Shown here in pieces: positions 5,324 through 14,218 of a stretch of 64,000 nt of DNA. The DNA lies in contig JBDRPL010000005.1 in the NCBI GenBank assembly GCA_043827025.1, forward strand, positions 35,569-99,568, in the 5' to 3' direction. A model generated the notes under the pieces. The model ran no database searches, had not been told where the DNA came from, and saw only the letters and a list, made by a program, of their open reading frames with translations. A program made the position numbers and the translations under genes. Position 1 is the first letter of the stretch. Every line of letters begins with the position of its first letter. This DNA is from Candidatus Micrarchaeota archaeon. Its GTDB lineage: Archaea; Micrarchaeota; Micrarchaeia; Anstonellales; Bilamarchaeaceae.

Positions 5324-6454
5324 TTACCCTATTATATCAATATCAAGACCGTCCAGTTCCTGATCTACAGTCTTTGTTTCCTTCTTAGTAAATCTTACTC
5401 CCGCAAGAACTATTAATACTCGCATTGACGACTTTTTCATATTTTCTTCTATCCTTGAACCCCAAATTATATGGGCATTCGGATTTATTCTTCTTGAAGT
5501 CTCTGCTACGATATATTCAGCTTCCTTTAATGTCATATCCTCTCCGCCTACGACATTAACAAGAGCTTTGGTGCACGAGTCTATCTCTGCATCAAGCAAT
5601 GGCGAATTCAATGCAGTGTCAATTGCTATCCTGCACCTTTCATCCCCTTTTGCATCAAGCGAAGCTTCTCCTAAACCAATTACTGCAAATCCTCCGCTGG
5701 ACAGTATTGTCCTAAGATCTGCAAAATCCACGTTTACAAGTCCTGATTTGGTGACCAGTTCTGTAATTCCTTTGACTGCACCTGCAAGAACTTCATCACA
5801 GACTTTGAACGCAGTATTAAGCGGAAGGTCTGGGACAAGGTTCAGGAGTTTGTCATTTTTTATTACTATGAGTGTGTCAGTGAATTTCTTGAGTTTTTCA
5901 AGGCCGGTCATTGCATTTTCCATCCTTATTTTTCCTTCTGAAGTGAAGGGCAATGTTACTACTCCTACTGTCAATGCGCCTGCTGCCTTTGCCTGCTCTG
6001 CAATTATTGGTGCGCTTCCTGTTCCTGTGCCGCCACCTAACCCGCAGGTTATGAATACTAATGAACCATCGCTTATTACATTTTTTATTTCTGACAGGGC
6101 CTCCTTTGCAGCTTCTTCTCCGACTGTAGGGTTGCTTCCAGCGCCCTTTCCTCCACTAACCTTTTTTCCTAAAATGATCTTTTTGTTTGCCCTTACCTTT
6201 AACAGATGTCGAGCATCAGTATTCATTGCAATTAGTTTCACACCATCGATTCCCAATTCAAATAATCTGTCAAGCGTGTTGCTTCCGCTTCCCCCAGACC
6301 CAACGATATATATTTTCTGCTTGTTTTCTTCTATGAATTTCAGTATTTCATCGTTGCTGTCAGCCTCGTCAGTGATGTCTTTTATAAGCTCGCTGTTCGT
6401 GGCATCTGCAACCATGATTTTTTCCGGGGTTTGAGTCTGTGGGACTTCTGACAC
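5324..6454 (-). CDS. ftsZ: cell division GTPase FtsZ
   Basis: 376 aa; tubulin/FtsZ signature GGGTGTGSAPIIAE and IYIVGSGGSG. Confidence 0.95.
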   Translation of the reverse strand: MSEVPQTQTPEKIMVADATNSELIKDITDEADSNDEILKFIEENKQKIYIVGSGGSGSNTLDRLFELGIDGVKLIAMNTDARHLLKVRANKKIILGKKVSGGKGAGSNPTVGEEAAKEALSEIKNVISDGSLVFITCGLGGGTGTGSAPIIAEQAKAAGALTVGVVTLPFTSEGKIRMENAMTGLEKLKKFTDTLIVIKNDKLLNLVPDLPLNTAFKVCDEVLAGAVKGITELVTKSGLVNVDFADLRTILSSGGFAVIGLGEASLDAKGDERCRIAIDTALNSPLLDAEIDSCTKALVNVVGGEDMTLKEAEYIVAETSRRINPNAHIIWGSRIEENMKKSSMRVLIVLAGVRFTKKETKTVDQELDGLDIDIIG

Positions 6455-9618: not shown

Positions 9619-9708
9619 ATTTTTATATTCTTTCATTCTAGTTATTTGTTTCTTTAATTAGGTATTGTAGACAGGTTATTTGTGCATGTTTTGCACATGT
9701 TTTTATTT

Positions 9709-9792
9709 GCAGGGGTGGCGGAGTGGTCAAACGTGCTAGGTTGAGGGCCTAGTGGCTTAGTGCCTACGAGAGTTCGAACCTCTTTCCCTGCA
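9709..9792 (+). tRNA. tRNA-Leu(GAG), class II with a long variable arm
   Basis: GCAGGGG acceptor 5' strand / TCCCTGC-A 3' strand; 3-bp D-stem; perfect anticodon stem CTAGG-TTGAGGG-CCTAG (anticodon GAG); variable-arm hairpin GGC-TTAGT-GCC; T-arm GAGAG-TTCGAAC-CTCTT. Confidence 0.8.
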
Positions 9793-9796
9793 TACT

Positions 9797-9945
9797 GATC
9801 TGGTCTGAGGACACTAACCTTTTAGGTTCTCAGATTAGATCTCAAATCATGGCAAGAACGTCGCAACGTTCTTGACTGCCATTGTCGCAAGCGACAATAG
9901 CATGCCCTGAGGAACTCAGATCGGATCTGAGGTCTGAAGCTACTT
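9797..9945. repeat. structured intergenic block with several perfect hairpins and a GATC...GGTCTG motif that recurs at 14094-14115
   Basis: Inverted repeat gatctggtctgag / ctcagattagatc (9797-9841); hairpins caagaacg-tcgcaa-cgttcttg (9853-9874) and attgtcgc-aa-gcgacaat (9881-9898); ctcagatcggatctgaggtctgaa (9915-9938). Confidence 0.35.
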
Positions 9946-10024
9946 AACATTACAATGCCAAATTTAGCAAAATGTAGATCATCTCGCCGAGTGCTGTTCT
10001 GAGGAGAGAAGCTTATAAAGACTG

Positions 10025-10354
10025 CTACTGGCTTAACCAAACTAATTTGTTATTAGAATCAATAGGAAATCTACTTTTTAACGTATGTAAAAGGGTTCTA
10101 CTATCCCCTTTCTTTAAACAAAACCATGCCCCCATCAAACGATGGTATTCTCTAAGGGTTATTTTCGAATCTCCAATTTTTGTTTTAAGTCGTTCAAATG
10201 CCATTTTTTCAAAATCAAATTTTCTATTCGTTTCTTCTACTATCTCGGGTTCAATTTCTTTCTTTACCTGCGGTTTATTTTGCTTTTTTTCTTCAACCCT
10301 AGCGAATAAATCGTCTAGTATGGCATTCCATCTTTCAAGTTTTTCTCGATCCAT
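10025..10354 (-). CDS. hypothetical protein (about 109 aa from the internal Met MDREKLERW...)
   Basis: The ORF-track ORF 10025..10489 overlaps the upstream gene by 125 nt; the start at 10354 removes the overlap; no recognisable domain. Confidence 0.4.
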   Translation of the reverse strand: MDREKLERWNAILDDLFARVEEKKQNKPQVKKEIEPEIVEETNRKFDFEKMAFERLKTKIGDSKITLREYHRLMGAWFCLKKGDSRTLLHTLKSRFPIDSNNKLVWLSQ

Positions 10355-10364
10355 ATTAAAAACC

Positions 10365-11708
10365 CTATAAATCAATCTTATTGCCTTTTTTCGGGTGTAA
10401 TGCTCGATCCTTAAATAGTTCAGCATGATGAGTATGTATAGGTAAAACTTTTTTTGGATCAATCTCTTCAATGAATCCAAATATCTCACTCATAGCCGCA
10501 TGCCCGGAAGCGTGCAATTGGTGATATGTAAGACCGAAGGTATCAGTCCAATTATGTAAAACGTCATCAGAAACCTGAGAAATCGGATCCTCTTCAAAAG
10601 GTTCACTCATCGAATGAATACAAATTCCTCCTTTTGGTTTTATATCAATTAATTCAGTGAGTTGGAAAAAATCAAGCTCAAGAATACAATTGTTACAATT
10701 CTCAGAAACATATTCTGAATCAACACACTTTGGTAACATTGGTTTCTCCCATGGCTTGTAAACTTTCATTTCTCTACCATAAATTTTGATATGCTTATCT
10801 GAATATGGATCTGGCAAACCTATTGGATCATCTTTCAAAGATAAAAGCAAATGTGCCATCTTCATTGAGATTATCAAATCTTTTCCAGTTTCTTTTGCTA
10901 TCGAGTAAAACGTTCTAAATCTATCAATGTCTTTTGGATATCTCATGGCTAATATCAAACCTTTTGATTCTTGAACTACTTTTTTGCTCTCACTTTGCAC
11001 AATTGATTCTGTATGATTTTTTCGTGTTTCCTTTGGAGCAACTCTTGTTCCTTCTATAATCAAAACTTCAGGATCAAATTCCGATGCTTTTTTCACAAAA
11101 TCCTCGGTCATATCGCATCGTGGGCCATGCTTTCTCAAATCCCCAGAATAAGCGATATTTCCTTCTGAAGTTTCGATAACAAATCCATAAGCTCCAGGTA
11201 CAGAGTGGTCAACATGAACTGGGCAGACTTTGAAATCCCCTATTGAGAAGTCTTTTCCTGTTCTGAAAGTGTTAGTTTTAGTTTCTTCTTTGAAGAATTT
11301 CTGATTTGTTGTTTCTTGAGTAGAACCTAAAATAAGCTCAGTTGCTTCACCCAAATAAAGAGGAATGTCTGGATGTAAGTATTGCAAATGGGCAACATGA
11401 TCAAAATGAGCATGTGAAAGTATCACGCCGTCAAATTCTGGTTCTGCATAAGCCAGATCTGTTTTTTCCAAGACGTCTTTGGAGTATAAACCTTTGAGTT
11501 TTGGAATAAGATTAAATGCAAAATAATCCCTAAGTCCAAATCTTGCTCTTGGTGCAAGATATGCTTCAGGTACAAAATAATCATCTAAGAGATTAAATGA
11601 CTGTCCAAAATCCAAAAATATTCTTGACTTTTTATCTTCTATAAGAAATTTATTTCCGCCAATTTCGTTTATTCCACCATATGCAGTTATTGATGTCATA
11701 TTGCTCAC
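10365..11708 (-). CDS. beta-CASP family metallo-beta-lactamase ribonuclease (aRNase J / aCPSF2-like)
   Basis: 447 aa; MBL motif 2 SHAHFDHVAHL; beta-CASP motifs B and C near the C-terminus (HASGHAAMSEI...PIHTHH); N-terminal GGINEIGGNKFLIE...LDFG. Confidence 0.85.
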   Translation of the reverse strand: MSNMTSITAYGGINEIGGNKFLIEDKKSRIFLDFGQSFNLLDDYFVPEAYLAPRARFGLRDYFAFNLIPKLKGLYSKDVLEKTDLAYAEPEFDGVILSHAHFDHVAHLQYLHPDIPLYLGEATELILGSTQETTNQKFFKEETKTNTFRTGKDFSIGDFKVCPVHVDHSVPGAYGFVIETSEGNIAYSGDLRKHGPRCDMTEDFVKKASEFDPEVLIIEGTRVAPKETRKNHTESIVQSESKKVVQESKGLILAMRYPKDIDRFRTFYSIAKETGKDLIISMKMAHLLLSLKDDPIGLPDPYSDKHIKIYGREMKVYKPWEKPMLPKCVDSEYVSENCNNCILELDFFQLTELIDIKPKGGICIHSMSEPFEEDPISQVSDDVLHNWTDTFGLTYHQLHASGHAAMSEIFGFIEEIDPKKVLPIHTHHAELFKDRALHPKKGNKIDL

Positions 11709-12955
11709 TCCGTTAAATCTCTTATAAGTTCATAAACAGCATATAATTCACTAATTGTTTTTCTTACAAATGAAATTGTTTCGTCCTCACTCATCTTTAT
11801 TAAAGTTGCACGGGGCATCTCTTTACATATCTTAATTTCTAGTCCGTGATGTTTTCTTTTTAGAAGTTTTTTGAGTTTTTTAAAAATAATCAAATAATCA
11901 TTTTGTTCAGAAAAATCTAAATTCAAAGATAAGACTTCACTATATGAAGTTGGCGCATTTTTCCTGTTTTTGTCGCGTTCTATAAATTGAATAATAATTT
12001 TGTAACTTTTAGAATGTGTAGAACCTCCCTTTAATTGGTTAAACACTCGTGAAAGAGAAACGCCAGATTTGCGTAATTGGTCTGATTCAAGACAATCTTT
12101 AACTAACCTACGGATTTTAGCCTTGTTATTTAAAACTACAAATACCTCTAAACAACTTGGTGTCAGACCAGTAGAAATATGAGCAAAATCTTGTTGTCGT
12201 TCATATTTTGTTAGAACTGCACCAACCCACTGGTTTTCCATATTTAGCTTCGATTGATAAGCCAATGGTTTGACCCACATACTGCCTTTTTTAGGCTTAG
12301 CTTTTTTCAAGATTCCCTCAACTTTACTTTTTACATTCCTAGCCATTTCTTGATCTTCGAAAAATCCAAAATCTTTACTATTAAAATTTAATGTTGCCAT
12401 ATTATTCACCTCGAGATATTCAAGAAATTCAGTTAATAGAAAATTCACCAAAAGCTTCTTTTCAAATTTTTGTTGCATCTCTTTCAAGAAGGAATATACT
12501 TCTGGCCATTGATGCTTATTTTCTTTCTTAACATTAAGCAACTTACAATGTCTTCTAAGTTGATCTTTGTTTACGTTAGAACTTGTTTTGACCTCTACGA
12601 GTATTGCGAAGTTATCGTTATTACTATAAATCCAAGCGTCTGGAATACTATCATTAAGTTTAATTTTTCCATTTTCTCTCTTTTCTTTAGAATATATTAG
12701 CAAAACTGCTCTTTGTTTTTTAGATCTAAGATCTTTAGCTAAATCTCGATTTTGGAGTTCATATTTAATATTACTTCCAGAAGGAACCACGCTGGTAAAT
12801 TTTTTTATAAACTTACGGGTAATCTCAGGTTCGTCACATTTTTCTAATAAATTTATAAGTGATTTCGTAGTATTATTCTCTATCTGATACTCGTCTTTCT
12901 GTGGGTCAGAACTTTGAGTGCCATAATAATAAAATAAATTCTTATGTGGATCCAC
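11705..12955 (-). CDS. hypothetical protein with an N-terminal PD-(D/E)xK (Hjc-like) nuclease-fold domain and an unassigned 280-aa C-terminal region
   Basis: 416 aa; GTG start overlapping the HAD stop; stop overlaps the beta-CASP start by 4 nt (ATGA). Motifs LINLLEK...IPDAWIYSNNDNFAILVEVKTS match the E...D...EVK restriction-endonuclease-like core; compare Hjc DLVA...YLCIEVK. Confidence 0.6.
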   Translation of the reverse strand: MDPHKNLFYYYGTQSSDPQKDEYQIENNTTKSLINLLEKCDEPEITRKFIKKFTSVVPSGSNIKYELQNRDLAKDLRSKKQRAVLLIYSKEKRENGKIKLNDSIPDAWIYSNNDNFAILVEVKTSSNVNKDQLRRHCKLLNVKKENKHQWPEVYSFLKEMQQKFEKKLLVNFLLTEFLEYLEVNNMATLNFNSKDFGFFEDQEMARNVKSKVEGILKKAKPKKGSMWVKPLAYQSKLNMENQWVGAVLTKYERQQDFAHISTGLTPSCLEVFVVLNNKAKIRRLVKDCLESDQLRKSGVSLSRVFNQLKGGSTHSKSYKIIIQFIERDKNRKNAPTSYSEVLSLNLDFSEQNDYLIIFKKLKKLLKRKHHGLEIKICKEMPRATLIKMSEDETISFVRKTISELYAVYELIRDLTE

Positions 12956-13623
12956 TAAATTACCCCCGTTAATTCCTCAAATTTTTCTATTTCATAATCC
13001 GCTTGAATATTATCCTTGAACATCTGTCCGTATTTTGCTAGGCAAGTTTGCATACCTACCGCTTTAGCACCTTTAATGTCCCGTGTGGGATTATCACCAA
13101 CAAATAAAACTGCATCGGGTAATACTCCTAGTTTTTTTAGTGCCAATGTGAAAGCAGAAGGATGCGGTTTGAATTTTTGAGTGTCTGAATGTGTAATTAT
13201 AAAATCAAATTCATTTTCCAATCCAGTAATAATAAGTCGTTGCCAAACTTTGTTTCGTGGGCCATCAGAAACTATGCCCAATTTTACGCCTTTTTCTCTT
13301 ATTTTTCTAAGAGTTGGCTTTACCATTGGATAAGGTCGCAGAACTTCTGATTTTCTTTGTAAATAAGCCAAAATTCCAGCCTGTTGAATCTTTTCAGCTA
13401 GATTTACTTCTAATTTATACTGCTTAACTACTTCATAGAAAGTCTTTTGATATTCTATTCCTTTCTCATCATAAACCGAGAATATTTTTCCATAAACTTT
13501 TATTTCCTCATCTGGAAGGCCCTGCTTAATCATGGCCTTAGCGGCAGCTTTAGCAGTTTCTTTCTTGAAAGTAAGGAAATCCAGAAGCGTATTGTCCAAA
13601 TCGAAAAGAACTGCCTTAAACAT
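12955..13623 (-). CDS. HAD-superfamily hydrolase (subfamily IA phosphatase)
   Basis: 222 aa; motif I FDLDNTLLD, motif III lysine, motif IV VGDNPTRDIKGAKAVGM. Confidence 0.85.
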   Translation of the reverse strand: MFKAVLFDLDNTLLDFLTFKKETAKAAAKAMIKQGLPDEEIKVYGKIFSVYDEKGIEYQKTFYEVVKQYKLEVNLAEKIQQAGILAYLQRKSEVLRPYPMVKPTLRKIREKGVKLGIVSDGPRNKVWQRLIITGLENEFDFIITHSDTQKFKPHPSAFTLALKKLGVLPDAVLFVGDNPTRDIKGAKAVGMQTCLAKYGQMFKDNIQADYEIEKFEELTGVI

Positions 13624-13814
13624 GAATCAACCTTTAGAAAGATCATCTAAGTACTTAGTAAGAAATTTACTTACTGCCTCCTTTTTCTCTTCAAGGGAAT
13701 ACTCCTTTTTCTTTGCATTTTTCATTAACACACCTTGTCTATGTTTTTTATAGACATATCTGTTTAAAAGGTTAATGAAATTAAATATTACCATGACAGA
13801 AACGGTGCTTATCT

Positions 13815-14078
13815 CTACCTTTTACTCAGCCATTTGGCCCAGCAGCGCATACAATATACTACCTTGGCCACTCGCCCGTGGCTCGAACCCTTAGCTAACC
13901 GTATCTTGGAAAACGAAACTATGTCCTTTTTGTTTTCAGGACATATTTCCGGCTCTTTATCCATCTTGTCCAGCGCAGTGGCCAGACGCCTCGGATAGTT
14001 ATACAAATCTATATCCGCCATACCAATCACTCCGGCAGATGATCTATTTTTTATTTCCTGCAAAATTTGATACCACAA
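13815..14078 (-). CDS. questionable small ORF (67-87 aa) inside a GC-rich hairpin-rich segment; could instead be an ncRNA
   Basis: ORF-track ORF with no family match; the region carries GC-rich stems (gccactcgcccgtggc, atgtcctttttgttttcaggacat) unusual for this AT-rich genome. Confidence 0.2.
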   Translation of the reverse strand: MWYQILQEIKNRSSAGVIGMADIDLYNYPRRLATALDKMDKEPEICPENKKDIVSFSKIRLAKGSSHGRVAKVVYCMRCWAKWLSKR

Positions 14079-14218
14079 TGATAATTGGTTTGTGATCTCA
14101 GATCAGGTCTGTGAATTCTTCCCCTTGCATAGTCATTTTCTCTCAGTGCACTATTTTGTCGAAACACTGAGACTGAATCTCAACTTTCTTCCCCTGCACC
14201 ACTTCTTTTTCATAGTCA

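Follow-up and report, generated by a model that had tools for sequence, protein, structure and literature searches.

Integration hotspots flanked by core genes, and defence islands, exist in prokaryotic genomes. DPANN archaea have tiny genomes, and few defence or mobile elements have been recognized in them. The locus described here lies in a stretch of 64,000 nt from a Candidatus Micrarchaeota archaeon (contig JBDRPL010000005.1, positions 35,569 to 99,568), referred to below as the window. It comprises three consecutive minus-strand genes encoding a haloacid dehalogenase (HAD)-superfamily phosphatase, a middle protein (MID) of an uncharacterised family, and a metallo-beta-lactamase (MBL)/beta-CASP enzyme resembling RNase J (RNJ). 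The original prediction, which located these three open reading frames (ORFs) correctly, regarded them as an obligatorily co-expressed module of a phosphatase, a DNA nuclease and an RNA nuclease, possibly a new defence system. We favour another reading, at a probability of about 0.75: HAD and RNJ constitute a conserved unit, a housekeeping operon, and exactly between them sits one accessory gene, a solitary DNA nuclease with a defensive or selfish role.

In the closest relative found (L181), whose RNJ is 90% identical, HAD (455–1123) directly abuts RNJ (1124–2458) and MID is missing. A MAFFT alignment of window positions 10300–13700 (minus strand) with this contig contains a single gap of 1255 columns (Table 1), which corresponds to the MID ORF alone; the flanking nucleotide sequence is 80% identical towards HAD and 82% towards RNJ. 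The window and L181 therefore differ by the clean presence or absence of a single ORF. Neither a co-conversion tract nor an identity gradient was seen beside the junction in this comparison.

The same two genes recur, with and without something between them, in a wider set of genomes. Nineteen Micrarchaeota-like loci, with RNJ at least 54% identical to that of the window, were informative. HAD is located upstream of RNJ on the same strand in 14 of them, directly abutting it in eight (L016, L102, L103, L104, L106, L108, L114 and L181) and separated from it by an occupied gap in six (Table 1). No homology was detected among the cargo genes of the gap, including those of L101 and L109. The identities of HAD and RNJ to their window counterparts are incongruent (87% and 66%, respectively, in L101; 66% and 73% in L016), a pattern that recombination with breakpoints at the junction would produce. 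HAD–RNJ is a conserved gene pair of Micrarchaeota with variable cargo in its gap, and the junction looks like a recurrent insertion slot. The pair was not found in any of 62 more distant loci (RNJ identity 44–49%), where HAD is not near RNJ. The conserved gene neighbourhood is that of the HAD–RNJ pair; all three genes occur together only in the window and in L113.

One Micrarchaeota contig (L020) shows a different arrangement. A gene with a Csa3_N domain, typical of a CARF-like regulator (5375–6004), overlaps the RNJ start in the place of HAD; HAD is found two genes downstream, and genes for DndB and an N6/N4 methyltransferase lie a few kb further.

The MID family is large, patchily distributed and mostly bacterial. 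Its genome loci (n = 80) belong to Planctomycetota, Chloroflexota, Desulfobacteraceae, Ignavibacteria, Bacteroidota, Bacillaceae isolates and several archaeal phyla. HAD adjoins a MID homologue in only three of about 90 loci (the window, L113 and L068), and approximately 87 of the 90 have neither HAD nor RNase J nearby. No conserved partner of MID emerged from all-against-all ORF clustering of the 80 loci or when 117 immediate neighbours were surveyed with Pfam and PADLOC, and no methyltransferase gene adjoins MID in the window. Genes packed tightly against MID homologues include housekeeping ones (polynucleotide phosphorylase (PNPase), AccA, prephenate dehydrogenase, ABC-2 permease) and ones associated with conflict or mobility (BREX, UvrD with PIN and NOV_C, Mrr, a DUF4258/MqsA pair, IS21 and IS4 transposases). 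Matches to the N-terminal domain, covering about 45% of the query in tblastn, are carried by seven Bacillaceae megaplasmids. No MID homologue was found in phage collections (PHROGs, IMG/VR contigs, GenBank phages). In PADLOC-DB 2.0, MID and RNJ have no match at E ≤ 0.1, and HAD has only a generic hydrolase match.

Several individual loci of the family deserve mention. In L047 and L048, two contigs of one Planctomycetaceae metagenome-assembled genome (MAG), a MID-family gene precedes one and the same 653-aa IS4-type DDE transposase (DUF4277 and DDE_Tnp_1 domains), suggesting that a MID-family gene can travel with an insertion sequence. Megaplasmids of the B. cereus group, such as a B. toyonensis plasmid (L184; NZ_CP126529.1, 126140–138715), encode a 324-aa protein homologous to the MID N-terminal domain; its gene has a Y-family polymerase/YolD cassette on one side and a folE-queE-queD-queC 7-deazaguanine cluster on the other. 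Another homologue (P0276 in L182) lies beside a Y-family polymerase fragment.

The only minor recurrence in these neighbourhoods is a DUF6308-like gene (about 190 aa), which six distinct MID genes have at their loci and which the window lacks. Members of this family match Pfam DUF6308 below threshold (E 0.002–0.004) and are encoded beside or near MID-family genes in several unrelated phyla (Table 1). They also fill the HAD–RNJ slot on their own in L175 and L109. The DUF6308-like family is possibly a second type of cargo or an occasional partner of MID.

MID itself matches a hypothetical protein from a Candidatus Micrarchaeota MAG at 100% identity. A word-indexed search retrieved seven relatives, whereas a full profile search retrieved 1594 cluster representatives at E ≤ 1e-3 (clusters at 50% identity, about 1600), of which 203 reach E ≤ 1e-30; nearly all are 400–430 aa long and match over their full length. 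In a check for informative domain fusions, ten longer members of the family showed no Pfam domain.

Across 52 homologues, residues E26, D106, E121, K123 and Q132 do not vary, and 90% or more of the sequences retain P105. The AlphaFold model (pLDDT 83.6, pTM 0.83) contains a helix at residues 18–39, strands at 81–88, 107–111 and 116–122, a helix at 130–139 and a strand at 145–149, in the canonical alpha-beta-beta-beta-alpha-beta order. Motif and model together point to a PD-(D/E)xK nuclease core in the N-terminal domain, consistent with the motif originally noticed there. MID shares with the PD-(D/E)xK superfamily an invariant E...PD...ExK signature and, in the helix that comes after it, a conserved Q. 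In RecB/Cas4-type domains and in PDDEXK_4, ExK precedes a helix of the pattern Q-x-x-x-Y/H, and Q132 and H136 of MID are located in the helix following the ExK strand. The match of MID to Pfam PDDEXK_4 is weak (E 0.012; best in the family 4e-4), and a match to BsuBI_PstI_RE is sub-threshold in Pfam/NCBIfam. Apart from the latter, MID has no match at E ≤ 0.1 to NucS/EndoMS, Hef or a named restriction enzyme in Pfam and NCBIfam.

The striking likeness to the archaeal Holliday-junction resolvase Hjc claimed in the original prediction is not detectable beyond the generic ExK strand. Comparison with P. furiosus Hjc (1GEF) by hhalign gave a probability of 0.18% over nine aligned columns, and the identity was rejected. 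An (I/V)E(V)K strand is common to the two proteins, which are members of one broad superfamily, but Hjc is a single domain of about 120–140 aa, whereas MID has 416 aa and two domains.

The C-terminal part, 280 aa of which had been described as lacking a recognisable family, contains a domain that matches DUF1054/YktB (UPF0637; PDB 2a8e, 3mqz) over its whole length, both by profile and by fold. YktB/DUF1054 proteins are stand-alone and about 210 aa long, whereas in MID the domain is fused behind the nuclease core; the literature consulted gives no biochemical role for them. The known family thus covers the C-terminal domain only. The whole protein belongs to no named family and has no Pfam model; the family is undescribed but widespread. 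A match to a known family, together with a lack of conserved linkage to the flanking genes, had been named in advance as the outcome that would speak against a novel system: the linkage is indeed not conserved outside DPANN, while the family match stops short of the entire protein.

MID has a GC content of 0.308 (z −2.6), the lowest among window genes of at least 150 aa. In L113, the MID gene has a GC content of 0.35 and its flanks 0.47 and 0.51. The low GC of MID in both places fits a horizontal origin.

We therefore propose the following scenario for the accessory gene, each step of which is conditional. The gap between HAD and RNJ would be a slot accessible to recombination that takes up accessory genes, and the conserved genes on either side would act as homology arms. 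MID would be an active Mg2+-dependent DNA endonuclease, in which cutting is performed by the core residues E26, D106, E121, K123 and Q132, and the YktB/DUF1054 domain may provide recognition of a target or partner, or oligomerisation. Placed exactly between HAD and RNJ, the gene would be expressed from the host operon, probably by read-through and re-initiation. Its product would act alone as a conflict gene, either single-gene defence or a selfish nuclease, apart from the phosphatase and the RNase; HAD and RNJ themselves would be housekeeping proteins functionally independent of MID.

Recurrence of MID behind HAD bears on this scenario from both sides. Two further DPANN contigs show it: L113 has the order HAD-MID-RNJ; L068 has HAD, MID and a DUF6308-like gene, each overlapping the next by 4 nt, and the contig stops there. 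The MID copies of L113 and L068 are 39% identical to each other, and each is only 27–30% identical to the window copy. In a rough neighbour-joining (NJ) tree these two group with planctomycete, Omnitrophota and nanoarchaeal sequences in a clade of 17 members, and the window MID stands outside it; the tree is weak evidence, because the window MID is on a long branch. We favour repeated capture by a slot which also takes other cargo, because unrelated genes occupy the same position. Two other explanations remain, namely a single ancient insertion that was then lost many times and diverged rapidly, and a site preference of the nuclease itself. Three points weigh against the conserved pair with a solitary insert. 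The occurrence of MID behind HAD in L113 and L068 could reflect a functional tie instead of a shared slot; L181 may represent a loss of MID in its lineage instead of a gain in that of the window; and all the relatives are metagenome contigs.

A rival explanation is that MID is a free-standing homing-type selfish endonuclease that cuts the empty HAD–RNJ junction of genomes lacking MID and is copied into it by recombinational repair. This would explain the precise placement of MID between two intact conserved genes, and it agrees with the exact single-ORF difference between near relatives, the diverged copies at the same junction (the window and L113, as well as behind HAD in L068), the AT-richness of MID relative to its flanks, the lack of a methyltransferase or other partner, the bacterial lone insertions tight against core genes (PNPase, AccA, prephenate dehydrogenase) and the hint of recombination at the junction given by the HAD/RNJ identity incongruence. 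However, the comparison with L181 revealed no identity gradient or co-conversion tract, and copies in the same slot are only 27–30% identical and belong to different NJ clades. The slot also holds cargo that is not a nuclease (ankyrin-repeat and DUF6308-like proteins), and a 416-aa protein with a YktB-like domain is unlike known families of homing endonucleases. On balance, we consider homing a serious but improbable rival, at something like one chance in eight.

To a similarly low degree we credit the possibility that MID is a housekeeping nuclease of DNA repair or recombination whose position is incidental. Strict conservation of its catalytic residues across a wide phylogenetic range would suit such a role, as would the chromosomal nature of YktB/DUF1054 in Bacilli, some neighbours related to DNA metabolism (a uracil-DNA glycosylase-family gene in L027, Y-family polymerase genes in L182 and on the B. 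toyonensis plasmid) and the lack of matches in phage collections. Against it stand the very patchy distribution of MID, with absence from the closest relative, and its atypical composition, as well as carriage on megaplasmids, neighbourhoods of transposases, BREX, toxin-antitoxin and Mrr genes, and the lack of any stable genomic context.

The three genes are tightly packed. The HAD stop codon (TAG, 12955–12957) overlaps the MID start codon (GTG, 12955) by 1 nt, as originally described. The N-terminus M-DPH(K/R)N-FYYY is shared by homologues of unrelated organisms, which identifies this GTG as the true start. The second overlap, of 4 nt between MID and RNJ, depends on GTG 11708 as the RNJ start, which would give a protein of 447 aa (10365–11708). 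Orthologues of RNJ are 443–448 aa long and begin with MxS(I/L)T(A/F)YGG, so the real start should be ATG 11699, located 5 nt past the MID TGA and 7 nt past a GGAG; the MID/RNJ junction is then probably tightly packed and free of overlap. Shine-Dalgarno-like GG(A/G)G motifs precede both downstream starts. The tight spacing makes co-transcription of HAD, MID and RNJ very probable. As evidence for a functional unit such packing is weak, because it is the norm in this genome: the window is 92% coding, and among 53 same-strand neighbour pairs 12 overlap and 31 are at most 20 nt apart.

That HAD, MID and RNJ form a real module for nucleic-acid processing or defence is the least credible of the explanations, with odds of well under one in ten: the close spacing with ribosome-binding motifs and the gene orders of L113 and L068 speak for it, but L181 and seven other loci have HAD-RNJ without MID, nearly all MID loci lack both flanking genes, tight packing is commonplace, RNJ is a ubiquitous orthologue of a single lineage in Micrarchaeota, and PADLOC gives no matches. 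The evidence comes nearer to the fallback offered in the original prediction, namely a novel partner in a housekeeping operon.

The identity of the flanking genes was, broadly, predicted correctly. HAD exceeds the cutoff of NCBIfam TIGR02253 (175.2 bits against 169.75), matches Pfam Hydrolase (E 9e-32) and HAD_2 (E 1e-30), and possesses the motifs DxDxT (LFDLDNTL, residues 6–13) and GDNPTRD.

RNJ is, at the superfamily level, an MBL/beta-CASP enzyme, as judged by its motifs. It has 3788 homologues, the best 120 of which are 52–90% identical and include many named Micrarchaeota or "ribonuclease J". Pfam Lactamase_B_2 is matched with E 2.7e-15, and RMMBL scores 21.5 bits, marginally under the cutoff of 21.6. 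TIGR00649 is matched with E 1e-25 at 90.2 bits, far under the cutoff of 400. In profile comparison, the nearest solved chain is EF2904 (2az4; E 3e-41), followed at a distance by bacterial RNase J (E 6.5e-23) and the archaeal RNase J (aRNase J) of M. psychrophilus (5haa; E 1.5e-9, residues 79–274); the alignment to RNase J chains spans about 350 residues. We name the protein only RNase J-like, because the family cutoff is not reached and EF2904 is nearer by profile. Residues H96xH98xD100H101, H162, D164, D187, E216, H362, H396, H400 and H422 are invariant in 31 orthologues, and E216, H362 and H396/H400 are candidates for the beta-CASP motifs A–C, assigned by position. RNJ thus shares with RNase J and other beta-CASP proteins the MBL HxHxDH motif, candidate beta-CASP residues and an RMMBL-type C-terminus, whereas it is devoid of the C-terminal domain of bacterial RNase J. 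EF2904 of E. faecalis is counted among beta-CASP structures (PMC3095777), and aRNase J is described as euryarchaeal (PMC7144898, PMC3553952). As EF2904 is nearer to RNJ than the euryarchaeal enzyme, a separate DPANN lineage is conceivable, and the Micrarchaeota RNJ group may represent a separate, unstudied lineage of beta-CASP proteins.

MID is not the only part of the locus with a low GC content. ORF109, RNJ, MID and HAD fall within a block (10025–14113) whose GC content at third codon positions (GC3) is 0.24–0.27, against a window mean of 0.358 and values of 0.40–0.51 in the genes directly outside. Since HAD, RNJ and ORF109 also have low GC3, the whole block may have been exchanged with a lower-GC relative. 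The tRNA-Leu(GAG) gene, convergent with the operon, forms the downstream edge of the block. Repeats of the att type for its 3′ end were limited to an 11/12 match at 14187–14198 (E 2.8), which is not significant, and an inverted repeat (9969–9993 / 14028–14052; 25 nt, 80%) is not significant either; we do not claim that the block is a tRNA-integrated element. At the far edge, ORF87 (87 aa, 13815–14078) has some likeness to the N-terminus of an integrase but no database match. ORF109 has no Pfam, NCBIfam or PHROG match and only a marginal PADLOC match to JetA (E 1e-3), and it was not found adjoining RNJ in relatives.

The spacer between tRNA-Leu(GAG) and ORF109 (9794–10030) contains no convincing ORF. 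Instead, it holds four to five near-perfect hairpins in a row, including one with a 20-bp stem, with a minimum free energy of about −75 kcal/mol (z −3.5 to −3.7 on either strand), and it matches no Rfam family. The palindrome CTCAGATC-N-GATCTGAG occurs in it at 9829–9845 and 9915–9931, and in degenerate form at 14097–14113, on the far side of the block (7 matches vs. 1.5 expected). The hairpins could be a bidirectional terminator, an element like a miniature inverted-repeat transposable element or an unknown RNA.

Table 1. Features of the locus and of related loci. Positions without a locus name are those of the window.
Feature	Position	Strand	Description
HAD-superfamily IA phosphatase	12955..13623	-	222 aa; first gene of the conserved pair
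MID	11705..12955	-	416 aa, GTG start; inserted accessory gene, uncharacterised family
MID N-terminal domain, aa 1–190	12386..12955	-	predicted PD-(D/E)xK nuclease core
MID C-terminal domain, aa 191–416	11708..12385	-	YktB/DUF1054-like alpha+beta domain
MID key residues	E26 12878–12880; D106 12638–12640; E121 12593–12595; K123 12587–12589	-	
RNJ, MBL/beta-CASP RNase J-like protein	10365..11699	-	444 aa from ATG 11699; second gene of the conserved pair
Segment present in the window, absent from L181	11693..12948	.	1255 nt; presence/absence polymorphism of the MID ORF
ORF109	10025..10354	-	109 aa, ATG 10354; begins 10 nt past the RNJ stop; low GC3
tRNA-Leu(GAG)	9708..9793	+	ARAGORN; Rfam tRNA 48.2 bits
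HAD–RNJ gap content	window, L113		MID
HAD–RNJ gap content	L018		151-aa ORF
HAD–RNJ gap content	L101		Zn-ribbon ORF and 203-aa ORF
HAD–RNJ gap content	L175		DUF6308-like 167-aa ORF
HAD–RNJ gap content	L109		six genes including two ankyrin-repeat proteins
DUF6308-like family	L068 9239–9832; L087 1068–1643; L080 5898–6422; L098 5700–6413		about 170–200 aa
DUF6308-like family	L032 9686–10321; L001 6242–6817; L175 2779–3282; L109 3032–3598		about 170–200 aa

Since the three-gene system does not hold, it is not worth pursuing as a new defence module. The value of the locus rests on the uncharacterised PD-(D/E)xK-YktB family and on the slot, not on the operon itself, HAD-RNJ being an ordinary conserved pair. 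With an intact nuclease motif, a YktB/DUF1054 domain and about 1600 clusters, the MID family behaves, in bacteria as in archaea, like a solitary gene that is mobile. Homologues occur in cultured Bacillaceae, for example Peribacillus frigoritolerans JCM 11681 and Virgibacillus flavescens (L069 and L071), which makes the family directly testable, and learning what MID does could provide a first hint at the function of the DUF1054/YktB fold. A recurrent cargo slot in a conserved operon, if true, would offer a simple way to find the accessory genes of DPANN archaea.

In its stronger form, this idea holds that the HAD–RNJ junction is a dedicated cargo slot of DPANN/Micrarchaeota and that PD-(D/E)xK-YktB is a new solitary conflict nuclease, either a one-gene defence against viruses or plasmids or a homing-type endonuclease aimed at empty junctions of core genes, which would spread through bacteria and archaea by inserting seamlessly into operons; we regard it as tentative, and rather unlikely in full. 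Compared with known integration hotspots and defence islands, the slot differs in that it lies within an operon, in a DPANN genome of very small size, and its cargo in usually amounting to one or a few genes that join the operon seamlessly, with neither an integrase nor repeats. In common with them, two conserved genes bracket lineage-specific accessory genes, some of them nuclease-like, and the cargo is compositionally atypical.

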